Shown piece after piece: positions 1 through 35,369 of a stretch of 64,000 nt of DNA. The notes beneath the pieces are model-generated. The model made no database searches. It saw only the letters and a program-made list of their open reading frames with translations, and was not told where the DNA came from. A program made the position numbers and the translations under genes. Positions within the stretch are counted from its first letter, which is position 1; every line of letters starts with the position of its first letter. Source of the DNA: Kiloniellaceae bacterium (GTDB taxonomy: Bacteria; Pseudomonadota; Alphaproteobacteria; Kiloniellales; J153); contig JAJFGO010000055.1 of the NCBI GenBank assembly GCA_021776095.1, forward strand, positions 7,551 to 71,550, in the 5' to 3' direction.

Positions 1-443
1 GCGGTTGGGTTGGGAAACTGCACGAAAGTCAGGGCGGTCATGGCGGCCGCGCCGGACATGGCGACGATCCGGCCCCTGGGCAGCAAGAGAAAGAAAACCA
101 GGCAGGTTTGAATCAGAGTAAGGGCCACGAGAGGATAGCGCAGGGCCACCATCTTCATGCCGAACAGCCCCATCGCTCCCGCGTTGACGAGGTTGATATG
201 GCCAGCGTGAATATCCTGAACGTCTCGATGGAGCACTTCGCCGGCCAGAATGCGTTCGGCGACATGCGCGTAGGCACCGTCTGCCTGCGGCCACCAGAAC
301 CGATCATGGAAATGAAACAGAACCAAGGCTGCAAAGCACACCACGGCCGCACAGGCGATGACGTCGGCCCGGTCGGTCAGGGCCTGACCCGGCCGGGCAC
401 GGACGGTAATCCACCCGAAATACCGATGACTGGTTAGAGTCAC
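1..443 (-). CDS. 5' part of a polytopic membrane protein running off the left edge, possibly an ArnT/PMT-like glycosyltransferase
   Basis: Hand translation of the minus strand from GTG at 443 gives an uninterrupted frame to position 3: VTLTSHRYFGWITVRARPG...DGAYAHVAERILAGEVLHRDVQDIHAGHINLV...LTLIQTCLVFFLLLPRG. It has hydrophobic segments. It is absent from the ORF track because no stop lies in the window. The family call is a guess. Confidence 0.4.
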   Translation of the reverse strand, partial: MTLTSHRYFGWITVRARPGQALTDRADVIACAAVVCFAALVLFHFHDRFWWPQADGAYAHVAERILAGEVLHRDVQDIHAGHINLVNAGAMGLFGMKMVALRYPLVALTLIQTCLVFFLLLPRGRIVAMSGAAAMTALTFVQFPNPT

Positions 444-3239: not shown

Positions 3240-3899
3240 ATGCCGAGCGATCTTTCCTTCCTGCCCGACTGGGGCACCCTGCTGCCGTTCTTTGCCGCCA
3301 GCTTTGCGCTTTATCTGACTCCGGGCGTGGACATGGCCTTCATCGCCGTGACCAGCACGCGCCAGGGGGTAAGGGCGGGCGCCACAGCGGCGCTGGGTAT
3401 CGTGGGCGGCTGCATGGTGCACACCCTGGCCGCCGCGGTGGGCATCTCGGCCTTGATCATGGCCTCGCAGGAGTTGTTCACGGTCATCAAGATCGCCGGG
3501 GCGCTCTACTTGGTCTATCTGGCTTTGAAGATGCTGCGCGCCCCCGCCGCCCAACCCGGCGATGCGGGCACGCAGATCGCGCCGGCACGCAGTCATGTGA
3601 AGATCTTCGGCCAGGCCGCCTTGATCAACCTCCTGAACCCCAAGGTCGGCATCTTTATGCTGGCCTTCCTGCCCCAATTCGTGGATCCGGCACGTGGCCA
3701 TATTGCCTGGCAGATCCTGGCCCTCGGCCTGCTGTTCAACCTGGGCAGTATCCCGAGCAACACCGGGGTCGCGGTTCTAGCTGCTGGCCTAGGCCGCCGC
3801 CTTCGCGGCTCGGCCCTCGCCGGTCGTCTGGCCCGCTGGCTCGCCGCCGGCATACTGGGCGGTCTGGCGCTACGCCTGGCCCTGTCGGAACGGACCTAG
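3240..3899 (+). CDS. LysE/RhtB-family amino-acid efflux protein
   Basis: 219 aa with about 6 TM segments. The N-terminal [28 protein letters not shown] is typical of the LysE family. Confidence 0.8.
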
Positions 3900-24688: not shown

Positions 24689-25252
24689 TCAGTAGGCCCA
24701 GGACGCGGCGCAGGGCTCCGGCTCTAGGCTGAGGGCCGGTGTCCGTGCCTGGGCCGGGCGAACCGCCTTGCGGCTCAAGCGCCCGGCGGTTGAGCGATGA
24801 TCGGCGGCGCTCTGGTAGCGGACCTTGATCTTGGCCAAGGCGGCGCGCCAGGCGTCCGGCGAGGTATCCGGCGCAACCTCGAAGGCATCGAAGCCGCAGC
24901 GTAGCAGGAACAGGGCCTGATCGCGCAGCACATGGCCCACGGCGCGAAGCTCCCCGGTGAAGCCGTAACGCTCGCGCAGGAGGCGGGCGCTGGAATACGG
25001 TCGGCCGTCGGTGAACTTGGGAAACGCCAACGCAATGACGCCGAAATGCTCCAGCTCCTCGGCGATGGCCCGGGGCGATTGATCGCTACGCAAGCGCAGC
25101 CCGATCGGCACACCCGCCTCCATCAGCGTTTCGCGCTCTGCTTGCCAGCGCTCCAGGCTGACGATCGGCCAGACGCCGGGCGCCAGCGGCGCGCCGTCAT
25201 CGAGCGAGGTCCAGACATCTTCGACGATCTGCGAATCCTTAATGAGGGGCAT
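24689..25252 (-). CDS. DUF934 protein (sulfite-reductase-associated)
   Basis: Start at MPLIKDSQ. FPKFTDGRPYSSARLLRERYGF is the DUF934 hallmark. It overlaps cysI by 14 nt. Confidence 0.8.
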   Translation of the reverse strand: MPLIKDSQIVEDVWTSLDDGAPLAPGVWPIVSLERWQAERETLMEAGVPIGLRLRSDQSPRAIAEELEHFGVIALAFPKFTDGRPYSSARLLRERYGFTGELRAVGHVLRDQALFLLRCGFDAFEVAPDTSPDAWRAALAKIKVRYQSAADHRSTAGRLSRKAVRPAQARTPALSLEPEPCAASWAY

Positions 25253-26894
25253 AGAGCTTCTCCTTGAAGGGATCGAATCCGACCCGGGCGAGGGTTTGGT
25301 TGAAGGCTTCACCGTTCCGGCGCTGGCCAAGATAGGTATCGACGATGGTCTCGACCGCGTCGACCACGGTGTCGTAGGAAAATGCCGGTCCAACGATCCG
25401 CCCGAGTACCGCGTTCTCGTCGGCGTTGCCGCCCAGCGTGATTTGATAGAATTCTTGGCCTTTCTTATCGACACCCAGAATGCCGATATGGCCGACGTGA
25501 TGATGCCCACAAGCATTGATACAGCCGGAAATCTTGAGCTTCAGGCCGCCGATGTCGTGTTGGCGTTCGATGTCCGCGAATCGCCGGCTGATCCGTTGCG
25601 CCACGGGGATCGAGCGCGCGGTGGCCAGATTGCAGTAATCCAGCCCCGGGCAGGAGATGATGTCGGAGATCAGGCCCGCATTGGCGCTCGCCAGCTCGGC
25701 CGCGATTAAACCCTGCCAGACGGCATAAAGATCCGCTTGGCGGACATGGGCCAGGACCAAGTTCTGTTCGTGGCTAACGCGAATTTCGTCGAAGCTGTAA
25801 CGCGCCGCCAAGTCGGCCACGGCCTCCATCTGCGCCGCCGTGGCGTCGCCCGGCACGCCGCCTTCCGGCTTCAACGAGACCGTGACGATGGCATAGCCCG
25901 GTGCCTTGTGAGCGTCGACGTTGTTGCGCACCCAGCGGGCGAAATCCCGGTTCTCGAAACGCTGCGCCTCGAAGCTCGCGGTGACCGCCGGCAGGTCGTC
26001 GAAGGGCGGCGGCGCGAAATAGGCCTGAATGCGCGCAAACTCTTCGTCCGGCAGGTCGACGTCCCAATCCTTGAGGAATTGCCATTCTTTCTCGACCATC
26101 TCGGCGAAGGCCTTGGCGCCGATCTCCTTGACCAGGATCTTGATGCGCGCCTTGTAGATATTGTCGCGCCGGCCGAGCTCGTTATAGACCCGCAGGATGG
26201 CTTCCAAATAGGACAAGAGATAGCGCTTGGGCAGGAACTCGCGGATCGTCTCGCCGATCAGCGGCGTGCGGCCCAGGCCGCCGCCCACGATAACCTTGAA
26301 CCCGGCCCGCCCGCGCGCGTCGCGCACCATCTGCAGGCCGATGTCGTGAACCTTGATCGCCGCGCGATCGTTCGAGGCACCCGTCACCGCCACCTTGAAC
26401 TTGCGCGGCAAGAACGAGAACTCGGGATGCAGGCTCGACCATTGCCGGATCACCTCGGCGGTGACGCGGGGGTCCTCGATTTCGTCCGCCGCGGCACCCG
26501 CGAAATGATCGGCGGTCACATTGCGGATGCAATTGCCGCTGGTCTGAATCGCGTGCATCTCGACCTCGGCCAACTCAGCCAGGATGTCGGCTGCTTCTTC
26601 CAATTTCGGCCAGTTGAACTGGATGTTCTGGCGCGTCGTGAAATGGCCGTATCCCTTGTCGTAACGCCGCGCGATGTGCGCCAGCTTGCGCATTTGCTGC
26701 GACGACAATGTGCCGTAGGGCACAGCGACCCGCAGCATGTAAGCGTGAAGCTGAAGATAGAGGCCATTCATCAGGCGCAGGGGCTTGAACTCATCCTCGG
26801 TCAGTTCGCCGCTCAAACGGCGGGCGACCTGTTCGCGGAACTGCGCGACCCTTTCTTCCACAAATGTATGGTCGAACTCGTCGTAACGGTACAT
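25239..26894 (-). CDS. cysI: Sulfite reductase hemoprotein (nitrite/sulfite reductase family)
   Basis: Start at MYRYDEFD. TTRQNIQFNW, and siroheme/4Fe-4S cysteines SCPGLDYCNLA...SGCINACGHHH. Confidence 0.9.
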   Translation of the reverse strand: MYRYDEFDHTFVEERVAQFREQVARRLSGELTEDEFKPLRLMNGLYLQLHAYMLRVAVPYGTLSSQQMRKLAHIARRYDKGYGHFTTRQNIQFNWPKLEEAADILAELAEVEMHAIQTSGNCIRNVTADHFAGAAADEIEDPRVTAEVIRQWSSLHPEFSFLPRKFKVAVTGASNDRAAIKVHDIGLQMVRDARGRAGFKVIVGGGLGRTPLIGETIREFLPKRYLLSYLEAILRVYNELGRRDNIYKARIKILVKEIGAKAFAEMVEKEWQFLKDWDVDLPDEEFARIQAYFAPPPFDDLPAVTASFEAQRFENRDFARWVRNNVDAHKAPGYAIVTVSLKPEGGVPGDATAAQMEAVADLAARYSFDEIRVSHEQNLVLAHVRQADLYAVWQGLIAAELASANAGLISDIISCPGLDYCNLATARSIPVAQRISRRFADIERQHDIGGLKLKISGCINACGHHHVGHIGILGVDKKGQEFYQITLGGNADENAVLGRIVGPAFSYDTVVDAVETIVDTYLGQRRNGEAFNQTLARVGFDPFKEKLYAPH

Positions 26895-26910
26895 GGCGGC
26901 TGGTCCTCGC

Positions 26911-27219
26911 TTACCTACGCCCAGGTATCTCGGCCTGACGGCCAAGATCGCTGCGCACCGTCGGGCCAAGGGCGCGGATATTTTCGCGGTTGCTGGCCGG
27001 GCGCGGGGCCGTCGCCTCGTCAATCACGTCCATCAGGTAAGGGCCGACCACATTGGTCCTGTGCGCCGGCGCCTCGGCGCGGGCCAAAAGGGCCGCGGCC
27101 TCGTCCTGGCTTCGGGCGACGGCGGCACCGCCCAAACGTTCGCCCCAGATGTCGTCTCGCCCCAGGTAAATCACGGCACCGTCGCCCAGGCGGTTCGCGG
27201 TCACGATCTGCGCGGTCAT
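26911..27219 (-). CDS. DUF2849 protein
   Basis: 102 aa. VTANRLGDGAVIYL... in the position between cysG and cysI that is typical for alphaproteobacteria. Confidence 0.7.
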   Translation of the reverse strand: MTAQIVTANRLGDGAVIYLGRDDIWGERLGGAAVARSQDEAAALLARAEAPAHRTNVVGPYLMDVIDEATAPRPASNRENIRALGPTVRSDLGRQAEIPGRR

Positions 27220-27236
27220 TCCCTAGATCTCCTTAC

Positions 27237-28640
27237 TCAGACGGCCAGCGCGTGCGGCGCGGCGATGTGCGTGGCGGCGTCCGCGTGACGGGCGACCTCG
27301 CCGATCACGATGATCGCGGGACCGCGCACACCGTGGTTACGAAGCAGCGCCGGAAGCCCCTGCAACGCGCCCAGGATCACGCGCTCGTCGCTTCGGGTGC
27401 CATTCTCGATCACCGCAAGCGGTGTGTCCCCGGACAGGCCATGAGCGATCAGGCGTTGCGTGGTACGCTCGGCCGTGGCGACACCCATGTAGATCACTAG
27501 GGTGTGGCGCGAGCCCGCCAGCGCCGCCCAGTCGGGCTCGGGGGCGCCGTCCTTGCCCTGGCCGGTGACCAAGGTTACCGCCGCCGCATGGTCGCGGTGC
27601 GTGAGCGGGATACCCGCCACAGCGCCGCAGGCCGTGGCCGCGGTGATGCCGGGCACCACTTGGACCGCGACTCCATGGCGGCGCAGGTAATCCCGCTCCT
27701 CCCCGCCTCGGCCGAAGACGAAGGGGTCGCCGCCTTTGAGGCGCACAACCCGCTTGCCAGCACGCGCGTAGGCGCGCAGCAAGGCATTGATCTCATCTTG
27801 GCTCTTGGCTTGGTGACCGCGCGATTTGCCGACATAAACACGCACCGCGTCGCGTCGCGCGTGCTCCAGAACGCCAGGCCCAACCAGGCGGTCGTAAACG
27901 ATGACCTCGGCATCCTGCAGCAGCGCAGCGGCCCGCAGGGTCAAGAGGTCCGGATCGCCCGGACCCGCCCCAACGATGGCGACCGAACCGGCCGGAACCA
28001 GTTTCTTGGGCCGACGGTTGACCAAATCCAGGATCTTCTCCCGGGCCTGGCTCTCGCGCCCAGCCAGCGCGTCTGCGGCCGCTGGCCCATCGAAGAAATT
28101 CTCCCAGAACCGGCGGCGGGCGGATTCGCTGGGATAGGTCGCCTTGACCGAGTCCCGAAAGCTGTCCGCGAGCTCGGCAAGGCGGCCAAGGCGGGCCGGC
28201 AGCAAGGCCTCGATCCGGGCCCGCAGGCGGCGTGCCAGGACCGGCGCGGTGCCGCCGCTCGAGACCGCAACCACGATCGGATCGCGGTCGACGATGGCCG
28301 GCACCGTGAAGGACGAGAGCGCGGGCCGATCGACAATATTGACCGGCACGCCCCGTGCCGCCGCGGCCTCGGCCAGACGGGTATCGATCTCGTCCTGCCC
28401 ACTCGCACCGATGGCAAGGACCCGGCCTTGCAGGTCGCCATCGACAAAACCGCGCCGGACGAGGTCGACCTCGCCCGCCGCCGCCAGGTCCGCGATCTCC
28501 TCGATAGGATCGCGCGCCACCACCGTGACCCGTGCGCGGGCGCGGCGCAGCAGGCGGAGCTTTCGCGCCGCCGCTTCACCGCCGCCCACGACGAGGCAGG
28601 GTTTGTCGACCAAATCGAAAAAGGTGGGAAAAAAACGCAT
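27237..28640 (-). CDS. cysG: Siroheme synthase (precorrin-2 dehydrogenase/ferrochelatase + uroporphyrinogen-III methyltransferase)
   Basis: Start at MRFFPTFFDL. VVGGGEAAARK Rossmann motif. VGAGPGDPDLLT and GDPFVFGRGGEE methyltransferase motifs. Confidence 0.9.
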   Translation of the reverse strand: MRFFPTFFDLVDKPCLVVGGGEAAARKLRLLRRARARVTVVARDPIEEIADLAAAGEVDLVRRGFVDGDLQGRVLAIGASGQDEIDTRLAEAAAARGVPVNIVDRPALSSFTVPAIVDRDPIVVAVSSGGTAPVLARRLRARIEALLPARLGRLAELADSFRDSVKATYPSESARRRFWENFFDGPAAADALAGRESQAREKILDLVNRRPKKLVPAGSVAIVGAGPGDPDLLTLRAAALLQDAEVIVYDRLVGPGVLEHARRDAVRVYVGKSRGHQAKSQDEINALLRAYARAGKRVVRLKGGDPFVFGRGGEERDYLRRHGVAVQVVPGITAATACGAVAGIPLTHRDHAAAVTLVTGQGKDGAPEPDWAALAGSRHTLVIYMGVATAERTTQRLIAHGLSGDTPLAVIENGTRSDERVILGALQGLPALLRNHGVRGPAIIVIGEVARHADAATHIAAPHALAV

Positions 28641-28871
28641 AAGACTCGCTCCAGGTTCCAAACAAGGGCCCACGGAGCAAATCCGTGGCGCTTTAGCACT
28701 TGTTAACGCGGTTGCAAGCTGCCCACTCAAATTCCGCGGGTCCGTTTAAGGCCGGACCAAACCCAACAAAAAAACCGCCCCTCAGCGTTTGCCGGGCGGT
28801 TTATCCGTAAAACCGCCGCTTAGCTGTCTCTAGCCGGGCACCCGCAAGCAGACGGATCGAAATCGGTGCCT
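28641..28871 (-). promoter_or_regulatory. Conserved 5' leader, copy A (upstream of cysG operon), with attenuator architecture
   Basis: Near-identical to 29741-29968. Reading on the minus strand: AGGCACC...GGTGCC hairpin, GGCGGTT / AACCGCC / GGCGGTT alternative pairings, U-tract, CCACGGA-TTTGC-TCCGTGG hairpin, GGAGCG Shine-Dalgarno 8 nt before ATG. A TTGACT -35-like hexamer (28902-28907) lies 30 nt upstream of the first conserved base. Confidence 0.6.
28768..28802 (-). terminator. Intrinsic terminator hairpin + U7 inside leader A (also positioned to terminate cysH)
   Basis: Minus strand: AAACCGCCCGGCAAACGCTGAGGGGCGGTTTTTTT. Confidence 0.7.
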
Positions 28872-29002
28872 GGGGTTAGAGTTGTCCCTCCTTGTTGTGT
28901 AAGTCAAGTGGTAATTACGTATTTTAATAGCACAATGATGTAATTTTACGATAAAATTATGTGTTTTTTCTGATTTACGATGTCGAACCAGTAGGTTACC
29001 CA

Positions 29003-29740
29003 TCACGCGCTAGGCCCGACCGGCCAGTGAATGCCGCATTCGCTCTTGCCTAATCCGGCCCAGCGACCCGCCCGGGCTGCTTCCCCCGGTGCCGTGCATC
29101 GGGTGCAGGTTGCGCAACCGATCGAACGGTACCCTTCTTCGACCATGGGGTGACGCGGCAGATCCGAGGCCGCGAAGGCGGCCTCGACCCGATCCGAACT
29201 CCAGCGTGCCAAAGGGTTGACCCTGATCCGGCCATCGGCCGCCTCGACCGTCTCCAATCCGGTCCGGGCATCGCCCTGATAGCGTTTGCGTCCTGTGATC
29301 CAGGCGTCGAAGCCGGACAATGCCCGTTTGAGGGGCAGCACCTTGCGCAGATGACAGCAGTGATCGGGCCCGTCGCGCCAGAGTATGCCGAGGGGATCCA
29401 GATGAGCGGCCGCTAGAGGATCGGGCGTAACGATGCGAAGGTCGCGCAACCCCAGGCGCGCGGTCACTTCCTCGCGATAGGCCAGGGTTTCTGGAAAATG
29501 CTTGCCAGTATCCAAAAAGACTACCGGAGTCGCCGGTTCGATCTCGGCAACCAGGTGCAAGAGCACGGCCGCCTCGGCCCCGAACGAGGACACAACGGCA
29601 ATGCGCCCGGGAAACTCGCGATGGATCAGGGGGGCCAGGAGGGCGCCACCGTCCAGGCCCGCGTAGTTGGCCTTCAGGCGGTCAACACGGCGCCACGCCC
29701 GGTCGTCCAAGTCATCGCGATCGACAGTGGATGGGGTCAT
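29003..29740 (-). CDS. cysH: Phosphoadenosine/adenosine 5'-phosphosulfate reductase, Fe-S type
   Basis: Start at MTPSTVDR. VSSFGAEAAV, CCHLRKV, C-terminal CATCT...KSECGIH cluster motif suggests the APS-reductase type. Confidence 0.9.
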   Translation of the reverse strand: MTPSTVDRDDLDDRAWRRVDRLKANYAGLDGGALLAPLIHREFPGRIAVVSSFGAEAAVLLHLVAEIEPATPVVFLDTGKHFPETLAYREEVTARLGLRDLRIVTPDPLAAAHLDPLGILWRDGPDHCCHLRKVLPLKRALSGFDAWITGRKRYQGDARTGLETVEAADGRIRVNPLARWSSDRVEAAFAASDLPRHPMVEEGYRSIGCATCTRCTAPGEAARAGRWAGLGKSECGIHWPVGPSA

Positions 29741-29968
29741 CGGGATCGCTCCAGGTTCCAAACAAGGGCCCACGGAGCAAATCCGTGGCGCTTTAGCGCT
29801 TTTTAGCGTGGTCGCAAGCTGCCCGCTCAAATCCCACGGGTCCGTTTAAGGCCGGACCGGGCCCAACAAAAAACCGCCTCGGCGTTCGCCAGGCGGTTTG
29901 TTCCTCGAACCGCCGCTTAGCTGAACCTAGCTAGGCACCCGCAAGCAGACGGATCGAAATCGGTGCCT
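29741..29968 (-). promoter_or_regulatory. Conserved 5' leader, copy B (upstream of cysH), with attenuator architecture
   Basis: Same element as 28641-28871. TTGACA (29999-30004) lies exactly 30 nt upstream of AGGCACC, as in copy A. No minus-strand gene lies immediately upstream that its terminator could serve. Confidence 0.6.
29868..29898 (-). terminator. Intrinsic terminator hairpin + U6 inside leader B
   Basis: Minus strand: AAACCGCCTGGCGAACGCCGAGGCGGTTTTTT. The stem base pair T-A here is C-G in copy A, a compensatory change. Confidence 0.7.
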
Positions 29969-30150
29969 ATCGCTACAATTGGCCAACTTGGGTGCGGGTG
30001 TCAACTATTTTGCACGCGACGGCGAAAATTCACCCGACGTCTCCACATATGTTTCGCAGCGGGAACGCGCGAGCACCCAGCCGCGTATCACGGGTTGAAA
30101 GCCGCGCGAGGGCTACAAAGCTCCGCGCGCGCCAACCCGAGGAGACTTCC

Positions 30151-30390
30151 ATGACCCGACCCTGGAGACGGCTCTTACAGCTCGGCGCCGCGCTTGGCTT
30201 GGCCGGCCTGTTGTCCGCCTGCCACTACTACGCCCCGGGACCCCACGTCGCCTACCGCGGCCACTACGGGTATAGTCATGGCTACGGCCATGGGTACGGC
30301 GGGCACGGTTACCGGCATTACCGTCCCTATCGCTACCGGAACCATGGCGGATATCATCGCCGGCACTACGGCTACCGGCACGGCTATTGA
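30151..30390 (+). CDS. Small lipoprotein with Gly/Tyr/His/Arg-rich mature region
   Basis: MTRPWRRLLQLGAALGLAGLLSAC lipobox, then HYYAPGPHVAYRGHYGYSHGYGHGYGGHGYRHYRPYRYRNHGGYHRRHYGYRHGY. GAGGAG lies 7 nt before the ATG. Confidence 0.6.
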   Translation: MTRPWRRLLQLGAALGLAGLLSACHYYAPGPHVAYRGHYGYSHGYGHGYGGHGYRHYRPYRYRNHGGYHRRHYGYRHGY

Positions 30391-30403: not shown

Positions 30404-31003
30404 TCAGCCGGTTACTTGATCGAGGCTGTTGGCGATCATGGCGAAGCGGTCCGAAAGGGCGGCCAATTCGACGCGGTGCAATTCCGCCGCCGACACCACG
30501 CCGCCCTGGCCGTCCGGCAGGTCGCGGGTCGCGCAGGCCGGCGCCAAGACCGTGCAGCCATAGCCCAGATCCAAGGCCGCGCGCACGGTGGTGCTGACAC
30601 ACATATGAGTCATGAAGCCAGCGACGATCAGCGTCTTTGCGCCCGAGTCCTTCAGCAGCGCGTCCAAATTGGTGTTGGCGAAGGCGTTGGGCACGACCTT
30701 CTCGACCACGGCTTCGCCGGTTTCGGGCGCGACCGGCGCGGCGATGGCAAAATATTCGCTGTCGCCATCGAACAGGCCGCCTGCCTTGCCTTTGTGCTGC
30801 ACGTGAATGATCGGCCGGCCCGCTTTGCGCGCCGCATCCAATAGTCCGGCCCCCTGCGCCAAGGCCGCATCGACGCCAGGCAAGGCCAAGCGTCCGGTGA
30901 CGTATTCCATCTGCGCGTCGATCATGACAACAGCGGACTCCGCCAGGCGGTGCGGCGCCAGCGTGGCGCCGGAAAGCTCGAAAAGCGTCTTAGGTGTTGT
31001 CAT
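30404..31003 (-). CDS. Isochorismatase-family cysteine hydrolase
   Basis: Start at MTTPKT. VVMIDAQMEY, LIVAGFMTHMCVSTT (catalytic Cys). Confidence 0.8.
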   Translation of the reverse strand: MTTPKTLFELSGATLAPHRLAESAVVMIDAQMEYVTGRLALPGVDAALAQGAGLLDAARKAGRPIIHVQHKGKAGGLFDGDSEYFAIAAPVAPETGEAVVEKVVPNAFANTNLDALLKDSGAKTLIVAGFMTHMCVSTTVRAALDLGYGCTVLAPACATRDLPDGQGGVVSAAELHRVELAALSDRFAMIANSLDQVTG

Positions 31004-35294: not shown

Positions 35295-35369
35295 GGGCGC
35301 GTAGCTCAGCGGGAGAGCACTGTCTTCACACGGCAGGGGTCGCTGGTTCAATCCCAGCCGCGCCCACCA
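35295..35369 (+). tRNA. tRNA-Val (anticodon CAC), CCA encoded
   Basis: Hand-folded cloverleaf: GGGCGCG-TA-GCTC-AGCGGGA-GAGC-A-CTGTC-TTCACAC-GGCAG-GGGTC-GCTGG-TTCAATC-CCAGC-CGCGCCC-A-CCA. Confidence 0.9.

Follow-up and report, generated by a model that had tools for sequence, protein, structure and literature searches.

SAM-II riboswitches (Rfam RF00521, SAM_alpha), which respond to S-adenosylmethionine (SAM), were defined in alphaproteobacteria; their terminators are common in alpha- and beta-proteobacteria, their promoters are placed close before helix P1, and the sulfite reductase gene cysI already stood in the SAM-II gene list of 2005 (Corbino et al. 2005). In 2QWY, whose numbering is used throughout, A47 contacts SAM, U44 pairs with the SAM adenine, and U11 and U21 turn their O4 atoms towards the sulfonium (Gilbert et al. 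2008). Nucleotides U10-12, U20, U21, G22, C23, G42, C43, U44 and A45-A47 are listed as completely conserved (PMC3764141). Tandem SAM-II doublets are also known (44 examples), some with a terminator after the first aptamer and control of the ribosome binding site (RBS) by the second (Sherlock et al. 2022, RNA Biol 19:1059; PMC9481103). Here, two related leaders upstream of the sulfate-assimilation genes cysG and cysH were analysed on a 64,000-nt stretch of a Kiloniellaceae genome (contig JAJFGO010000055.1, positions 7,551 to 71,550; the window). Each leader is, with high probability, a tandem two-mechanism SAM riboswitch, acting by transcription termination first and by a translation block second.

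Both leaders lie on the minus strand, at 28641-28871 (231 nt, before cysG; copy A) and at 29741-29968 (228 nt, before cysH; copy B). Global alignment gave 86.6 % identity (200 identical positions in 231 columns) versus 47-52 % for the flanks (100 nt on each side), which is background. The 34-nt 5' hairpin GGCACC...GGTGCC occurred exactly twice in the window and in none of 100 shuffles. An earlier sequence-only reading had described such a duplication with unrelated flanks, and the parts that it listed, namely the 5' hairpin, three complementary segments followed by a U6-7 tract and a CCACGGA hairpin, were found in both copies. Its treatment of each leader as one element was replaced by two tandem aptamers, each with its own expression platform.

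Relatives were collected in two ways. Five loci (L001-L005) were fetched by CysH protein identity and yielded seven first aptamers independently of any DNA pattern; the best CysH relatives were 66-78 % identical and came from metagenomes and metagenome-assembled genomes (MAGs), as for a poorly sampled alphaproteobacterium. Pattern scans of genomes and metagenomes returned 42 loci, 23 of which were discarded as chance matches lacking the P1 helix; the pattern matches included Kiloniellaceae MAGs. A leader BLAST search against plasmids in distant mode gave no match.

The firmest assignment concerns the 3' half of each leader, where an overlooked block separates the terminator from the CCACGGA hairpin. 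In a whole-window Rfam scan at gathering thresholds, aptamer 2 of copy B (29773-29847, minus strand; P1 CGUGG/CCACG; L1 GAUUUGAGCGGGCAGCUUGCGA; tail GCUAAAGCGCC at 29787-29797) matched RF00521 over the full model (1-79) with 42.5 bits (gathering score 36; E = 3.3e-6). Aptamer 2 of copy A (28673-28747, minus strand; P1 CGCGG/CCGCG; L1 AAUUUGAGUGGGCAGCUUGCAA; tail GCUAAAGCGCC at 28687-28697) matched the same full model in a local scan with 33.2 bits (E = 2.7e-5), 2.8 bits under the gathering score, and matched RF01726 with 35 bits. A compensatory P1 pair and G8A account for most of the difference between the two copies. An RF00521 match was present in every related cysH or cysG leader fetched. 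Among 15 related leaders, P1 was 100 % paired with one covarying pair (C-G in 11, U-A in 4); P2 (GC:GC, UU:AA, GGC:GCC) was likewise 100 % paired but invariant, and hence uninformative. The pocket blocks AUUU, GCUUGC and GCUAAA were invariant in 15/15 related second aptamers, and the SAM-II pocket is present in both window copies. On sequence grounds, both leaders thus carry a canonical SAM-II riboswitch aptamer in their 3' halves. The statement that the leaders belong to no known riboswitch family has to be dropped, a confident match to a described family being the outcome that the sequence-only reading had itself named as its refutation.

The 5' half appears to hold a second aptamer of SAM-II type. 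In copy B, aptamer 1 spans 29908-29968 on the minus strand (P1 29962-29968/29933-29939; L1 GAUUUCGAUCCGUCUGCUUGCG at 29940-29961; linker 29922-29932; tail GCUAAGCGGCGGUU at 29908-29921), and in copy A it spans 28811-28870 on the same strand (P1 28865-28870/28837-28842; L1 28843-28864; linker 28825-28836; tail GCUAAGCGGCGGUU at 28811-28824). Its proposed pseudoknot pairs are GC:GC, GCUU:AAGC and CCGUC:GGCGG. L1 of aptamer 1 (GAUUU-CGAU-CCGUC-U-GCUUGCG) equals L1 of aptamer 2 (GAUUU-GAGC-GGGC-A-GCUUGCGA) in length and shares its conserved blocks, and the tail GCUAAG-C-GGCGG corresponds to GCUAAA-GC-GCC of aptamer 2. Every element of the 2005 SAM-II alignment layout is in place (P1, GAUUU, P2 5' strand, GCUUGC, P1', linker, GCUAAA block, P2 3' strand, terminator), and the positions G8, U10-12, C19-C23 and G42-A46 are retained. 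In 20 homologues, P1 was 95.7 % paired with compensatory changes in five of seven pairs, and the pseudoknot was 95 % paired versus 32-48 % when its partners were slid by one to three columns. GAUUU and GCUUGC were invariant in the 20 aptamer-1 sequences, 13 of which had been retrieved with a search pattern that contained both motifs.

Similarity searches linked the two aptamer types transitively. Model R1, built from aptamer 1 alone, scored 80.5 bits on copy B and 75.2 bits on copy A, detected no further copies in the window and cross-matched 11 canonical SAM-II aptamers over its full length (9-13 bits). RF00521 gave full-length, sub-threshold matches exactly on three aptamer-1 homologues, with 23.7 bits for L010, 22.4 bits for L014 (E = 0.0017 when 121 nt were searched) and 22.0 bits for L018, the gathering score being 36. 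Rfam matches to RcsR1, mir-3389 and RNAI on the aptamer-1 region were rejected; they rested on the terminator stem, and each fell far short of its gathering score.

The tail of aptamer 1 runs into expression platform 1 (copy B, 29867-29914; copy A, 28767-28817; both minus strand). Segment 1, GGCGGUU (29908-29914; 28811-28817), doubles as the 3' strand of the aptamer-1 pseudoknot. Segment 2, AACCGCC (29892-29898; 28795-28801), can pair either with segment 1 or with segment 3, a second GGCGGUU that is followed by U6-7. The resulting terminator (AACCGCCUGGCGAACGCCGAGGCGGUUUUUUG, 29867-29898, in copy B; AACCGCCCGGCAAACGCUGAGGGGCGGUUUUUUUG, 28767-28801, in copy A) directly follows aptamer 1 and has about 10-11 pairs in two segments. 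In 17 leaders the terminator was 96.8 % paired and the antiterminator 89.8 % paired, with little covariation in either, which is expected because four mutually complementary strands constrain each other. A compensatory change at the terminator base between the two copies (U-A versus C-G) is a possible reading that rests on these two sequences only. The consensus terminator scan missed this terminator because its stem has a 12-nt interior, and flagged only the CCACGGA hairpin as terminator-like. Whole-leader minimum free energy (MFE) folding (z-scores -3.2 and -1.3) mispaired the 5' hairpin with the terminator flank and was uninformative on the switch.

Without ligand, GGCGGUU would pair with AACCGCC as antiterminator and RNA polymerase would read through. 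With SAM bound, the pseudoknot would hold GGCGGUU, so that AACCGCC would pair with the downstream GGCGGUU-U6-7 and the intrinsic terminator would stop transcription, at about 29867-29875 in copy B and 28767-28775 in copy A. An OFF switch would follow from the identity of segment 1 with the pseudoknot 3' strand, since a ligand-stabilised pseudoknot frees segment 2 for the terminator. The predicted energies (terminator -19.5 kcal/mol, nascent antiterminator -10.0 kcal/mol) stand in the order usual for a kinetically controlled OFF switch. The sequence-only reading had likewise seen mutually exclusive structures of an attenuator rather than a gene-end terminator, which remains the probable interpretation; as it had stated, there is no minus-strand gene directly upstream of copy B, the nearest one (isochorismatase family) ending at 30404, about 400 nt before the promoter.

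Terminator/antiterminator logic alone does not name the effector, and with so little covariation in both helices the choice might be set by a protein, a tRNA or the translation of a leader peptide rather than by direct metabolite binding. This is extremely improbable: the first ~130 nt contain no AUG and no small open reading frame (ORF) preceded by a Shine-Dalgarno (SD) sequence, no T-box or other Rfam match supports such an effector, and the switch is preceded by a covarying hairpin that matches the SAM-II core in its loop and 3' tail. The same unit of ~100 nt from promoter to terminator, with its own hairpin, also resembles the gene of a small RNA (sRNA). A weak RcsR1 match (17.5 bits) and the accumulation of the terminated metZ SAM-II leader of S. 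meliloti as the sRNA RZ (PMC9373788) would agree with a 5' module that primarily encodes a trans-acting sRNA and reaches the downstream genes by read-through only. That match is far below the gathering score of 60 and rests on the terminator; moreover, the element always directly precedes sulfur or methionine genes and shares their orientation, its two window copies both lie in leaders, and its conserved "loop" is the SAM-II L1 motif and not a free seed. A primary sRNA function is accordingly rated very improbable, and a terminated by-product RNA with a secondary role, by analogy with RZ, is plausible.

Between the two riboswitches lies the P0 hairpin (copy B, GGUCCG-gccuuaaa-CGGACC, 29839-29858; copy A, 28739-28758; both minus strand), which in copy B directly abuts P1 of aptamer 2 and may serve as an insulator. 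P0 was 98.9 % paired in the 15 leaders, with one compensatory change (G-C to A-U) and two one-sided changes. In both leaders of L004 (plus strand, 2778-2794 and 3826-3842) a 17-nt insertion in the P0 loop folds into a small hairpin of its own (CCCUCUCAAGAGGG), from which it follows that the P0 loop tolerates insertions.

Expression platform 2 (copy B, 29741-29788; copy A, 28641-28688; minus strand) comprises the hairpin CCACGGA-UUUGC-UCCGUGG (29770-29788 in copy B; 28670-28688 in copy A) and the SD sequence GGAGCG (29747-29752 in copy B), which in copy A lies within the region CCUGGAGCGAGUC (28643-28655). The sequence-only reading had placed GGAGCG 8 nt before the ATG; the SD is present, but it ends 6 nt before the ATG, the 8 nt being counted from GGAG. 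A competing long-range helix was found to sequester the SD: in copy B, GGAUUUGCUCCGUGG (29770-29784) pairs with CCUGGAGCGAUCC (29743-29755), and in general the hairpin loop and 3' arm GGA-NNN-GCUCC-G-UGG pair with the SD region CC-N-GGAGC-NNN-UCC. This helix was the MFE structure downstream of aptamer 2 in 15/15 related leaders and showed compensatory changes in three pairs, which join variable hairpin-loop bases to those that adjoin the SD on its 3' side. Invariance puts the CCACGGA/UCCGUGG hairpin beyond a covariation test; the hairpin overlaps the P2a strand GCC of aptamer 2. The hairpin noted earlier stood, as a component of the second riboswitch's translational platform; the covariation supports the SD-sequestering helix. 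In place of an SD inside P2a, the platform has a covarying long-range helix that sequesters the SD.

The CCACGGA hairpin would act as an anti-sequestor that is weakened when SAM closes the pseudoknot of aptamer 2, whose tail GCUAAAGCGCC overlaps the base of the hairpin. GGAUUUGCUCCGUGG would then be freed to pair with CCUGGAGCGAUCC, and the SD would be buried. Within the whole leader, transcription would start a few nt before P1 of aptamer 1, and read-through transcripts would carry P0 and then aptamer 2. High SAM would shut off cysH and the cysG-DUF2849-sulfite reductase-DUF934 operon, at transcription first and at translation next, and OFF at high SAM is the switching direction that we infer. 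SAM binding by both aptamers, SAM-dependent termination and RBS control are predicted from the sequence. A sensor of a sulfur-pathway metabolite, with SAM among the candidates, had been proposed before, and the SAM-II-type aptamers point the same way. Least certain of all is the relay that would lead, in platform 2, from pseudoknot to hairpin; it is weakly supported.

Computation supported the duplication, the RF00521 match, covariation in both P1 helices, P0 and the SD-sequestering helix, the conserved pairing potential of pseudoknot, antiterminator and terminator, and the occurrence of each aptamer alone elsewhere. Several findings weigh against the tandem SAM interpretation. In platform 2, the SD-sequestered fold was predicted to be about 6 kcal/mol stabler than the hairpin state whether the tail is free or not, so that the ON state would have to be kinetic. 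In the pseudoknot of aptamer 1, positions were invariant or changed on one side only (U.G to U-A, C-G to U.G), no pair being compensatory, and part of this invariance was imposed by the search pattern. RF00521 gave no match on aptamer 1 of either window copy at E <= 10 in searches of ~100 nt; for this reason the assignment of the 5' module to SAM-II type rests on architecture and transitive similarity. Lastly, aptamer 1 has G at position 47 (GCUAAG) where SAM-II has a near-invariant A47, a defining feature of the class, and is therefore termed SAM-II type and not counted as a proven member; in SAM-V, whose pocket is near-identical to that of SAM-II, inosine at the equivalent A50 severely cut binding.

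The substitution is consistent. G47 was found in 20/20 aptamer-1 sequences, including 7/7 first aptamers identified independently of the pattern, and A47 was kept in 9/9 second aptamers identified in the same manner. In the 2005 SAM-II alignment, 75 of about 77 sequences have GCUAAA and one, the metK leader of M. magnetotacticum (Magnetospirillum), has GCUAAG. Reading the tail of aptamer 1 as GCUAAAG minus one A was rejected, as the 2005 Stockholm alignment shows a tail of the same length with an A-to-G substitution at 47. Opposite G47 stands C19 and opposite C48 stands G18; because both can pair, P2b of aptamer 1 can become a continuous Watson-Crick helix, which gives a P2 of ~11 bp versus ~7 bp in aptamer 2.

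These features could mean that in aptamer 1 the SAM-II fold has changed its specificity to another ligand, a candidate being a SAM relative that lacks the amino-acid end or differs in it, and that the leader is a two-input NOR gate. The split between G47 in 7/7 first and A in 9/9 second aptamers, a C19-G47 Watson-Crick pair that would bury the edge used by A47, and the sub-threshold scores of aptamers 1 with the Rfam model are what such a variant would look like. All other pocket bases are kept, however, among them U11 and U21, whose carbonyls serve the sulfonium, and U44, which serves the adenine, and a C19-G47 pair would still offer the major-groove acceptors O6 and N7 and the N4 donor of C. 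Furthermore, solo G47 aptamers precede metXW and, in the seed alignment of 2005, metK, and both are classic SAM-regulated genes. A non-SAM ligand is therefore considered improbable, and since G47 aptamers precede metK and metXW, SAM is still very probably the ligand of aptamer 1. Spermidine-sensing SAM variants (PMC10853860) were dismissed as relatives; they are variants of SAM-I, not of SAM-II.

A broader proposal, that aptamer 1 represents a conserved G47 subclass of the SAM-II fold with C19-G47 paired and the contact at the SAM amino-acid end rewired, is improbable. In one version the subclass may sense a compound related to SAM, and the leader would then be a two-input gate; in the other it may keep the same ligand and trade one contact for a much stabler pseudoknot that outruns the antiterminator kinetically. 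If the proposal were true, current Rfam models would miss a subclass with sulfate assimilation (in Kiloniellaceae-like alphaproteobacteria) and metXW (in a Rhodocyclaceae MAG) under its control. A conserved natural A47G that can pair with C19 and, within the doublet, always falls in the terminator-coupled aptamer offers a ready test of how far loss of the amino-acid contact is tolerated.

The two modules also occur separately. All seven pattern-independent first aptamers showed the same architecture. Both modules were present in the cysH and cysG leaders of L002 and L004, in the cysH leader of L005 and in the cysG leader of L001; the cysH leaders of L001 and L003 contained the SAM-II module (aptamer 2) alone. 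Aptamer 1 stood alone before metX-metW, where it has a terminator of its own (L014, a Rhodocyclaceae MAG), before DUF2849 and sulfite reductase (L018, L024, L037 and L049), and with an SD platform before the gene of an NMT1-type binding protein in a Stellaceae MAG (L015 and L046). Its solo occurrence in three contexts marks the 5' module as a self-contained regulatory unit for sulfur and methionine genes.

Some relatives showed further peculiarities. In the cysH leader of L001 (836-865, plus strand), CAGCCTAGCTGCCGCGGTT upstream of the SAM-II aptamer resembles the aptamer-1 tail CAGCTAAGCGGCGGTT, which suggests a decayed remnant of a lost first aptamer. In the cysG leader of L003 (MAG GCA_003693905.1; 4860-5060, plus strand), an unrelated GC-rich stretch of ~200 nt replaces aptamer 1 between promoter and SAM-II and may be another leader element in tandem; a cobalamin riboswitch was suspected by eye and rejected, no Rfam match being obtained even at E <= 10. 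One Kiloniellaceae MAG contig (JBHHZJ010000057.1) carries near-identical tandem leaders ~4.5 kb apart (L010, 538-764; L016, 5027-5250), each followed by one and the same 5' end of cysG; the duplication may be real or may have arisen in assembly. L014 contains a group II intron domain (RF00029, 56.6 bits; 31-104, plus strand) some 200 nt upstream of its solo G47 aptamer before metXW.

The history of the duplication can be read from the distribution of identity. The aptamer-1 hairpins of the two leaders (28837-28870 versus 29934-29967) are identical at 34/34 positions, and aptamer 1 identity is highest for the within-genome pair (88 %). The second aptamers retain cysH-type (P1 U-A, L1 GAGC) versus cysG-type (P1 C-G, L1 GAGU) signatures that L001 and L004 also show. 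This pattern fits an old duplication of the leader followed by gene conversion of its 5' part.

Candidate promoters on the minus strand are similarly arranged. The -35 hexamers TTGACA (copy B, 29999-30004) and TTGACT (copy A, 28902-28907) each stand exactly 30 nt upstream of the first conserved leader base, as had been noticed from the letters, and are followed after a 17-nt spacer by the -10-like sequences CAATTG (29976-29981) and CAACTC (28879-28884). The layout TTGAC(A/T)-17 nt-(C/T)AAT(T/C)N recurs in related leaders; the consensus promoter scan found no strict sigma-70 promoter. From the putative promoters, transcription would start a few nt upstream of aptamer-1 P1, at about 29969-29972 in copy B and 28872-28875 in copy A. 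Downstream of the cysH stop, the spacer that leads to the promoter of the cysG leader (28908-29002, minus strand) is strongly AT-rich within a GC-rich genome; it contains ATCGTAAA twice, at 28974-28981 and, 29 nt away, at 28945-28952, as well as the palindrome GTAATTAC; comparable AT-rich stretches lie upstream of the cysG promoter in L001, L003 and L004. The spacer could be an UP element or a regulator site.

Both leaders precede sulfur-assimilation genes, which were annotated with NCBIfam and Pfam and lie on the minus strand. Copy B is followed by cysH (29003-29740, ATG 29738-29740), which encodes a phosphoadenylyl-sulfate reductase of 245 aa (NCBIfam NF002537, 256.9 bits). Copy A is followed by the operon cysG-DUF2849-sulfite reductase-DUF934 (24689-28640), composed of the siroheme synthase gene cysG (27237-28640, ATG 28638-28640), DUF2849 (26911-27219), the sulfite reductase hemoprotein ORF (25239-27023, true start probably near 26,895) and the DUF934 ORF (24689-25516, true start probably further downstream); the same gene order was found in L001 and L004. 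Between the cysH promoter and the isochorismatase-family gene lies a small plus-strand ORF (30153-30390), divergent from the promoter, with a lipoprotein-like signal (...LLSAC) and a repetitive tail rich in Gly, Tyr, His and Arg (HGYGHGYGGHGYRHYRPYRYRNHGGYHRRHYGYRHGY); a similar gene of 64 aa is found at the equivalent place in L003 (3294-3488, minus strand). The only other Rfam match in the window at gathering threshold was a tRNA gene (35295-35366, plus strand; RF00005, 63.8 bits).

Control of sulfate assimilation by SAM has a counterpart outside the proteobacteria. An S-box (SAM-I) leader that responds to SAM was reportedly described before the Bacillus subtilis cysH operon by Grundy and Henkin in 1998. 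That leader resembles the present ones in being a SAM-responsive leader before sulfate-assimilation genes, and it differs in its unrelated aptamer fold, its single aptamer and its Firmicutes host. T-box and leader-peptide attenuators are unlike these leaders, in which no Rfam T-box match and, in the first ~130 nt, no AUG or SD-preceded ORF were found. The SAM-II leaders of metZ and metA in S. meliloti share with them a terminator that yields a short RNA (RZ) and the capacity of SAM-II to act on translation at a distance; those are single aptamers before methionine genes (PMC9373788). The SAM-II/SAM-V tandem of Pelagibacter ubique (Poiata et al. 2009) likewise places a terminator-coupled aptamer before an RBS-coupled aptamer of the same ligand-binding fold, whereas the second aptamer here is SAM-II and the SD lies ~45 nt downstream, reached through a relay helix and not inside P2a.

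In SAM-II itself (RF00521; Corbino et al. 2005; structure 2QWY of Gilbert et al. 2008), aptamer 2 can be counted as a member, above the gathering score in copy B and just under it in copy A. What aptamer 1 shares with the class is P1, the L1 motif GAUUU...GCUUGC, a linker of 11-13 nt, the tail GCUAA-, a putative P2 pseudoknot, the promoter spacing and the terminator platform; it departs from the class in G47, in the pairing potential of G18-C48 and C19-G47, in a P2 of ~11 bp and in a less A-rich linker. Both sulfate-assimilation transcription units of an uncultured Kiloniellaceae-like alphaproteobacterium are thus predicted to be under double SAM control, half of which is invisible to Rfam, as the first aptamers in the window obtain no score; the value of this result is mainly for annotation. 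The architecture is already known and the picture of SAM-II biology is unchanged. The unusual point that remains is a conserved A47G in a terminator-coupled aptamer that current Rfam models miss. The closest described systems are the doublets of Sherlock et al. (2022), of whose architecture the two leaders represent two copies, which may be among the 44 examples. Like those doublets, each combines two SAM-II-type aptamers in one 5' untranslated region before sulfur/SAM genes, and has both kinds of platform, a terminator first and then a predicted control of RBS access. Unlike them, the first aptamer has G47 and falls below the Rfam threshold, and the whole doublet is duplicated before two adjacent transcription units.

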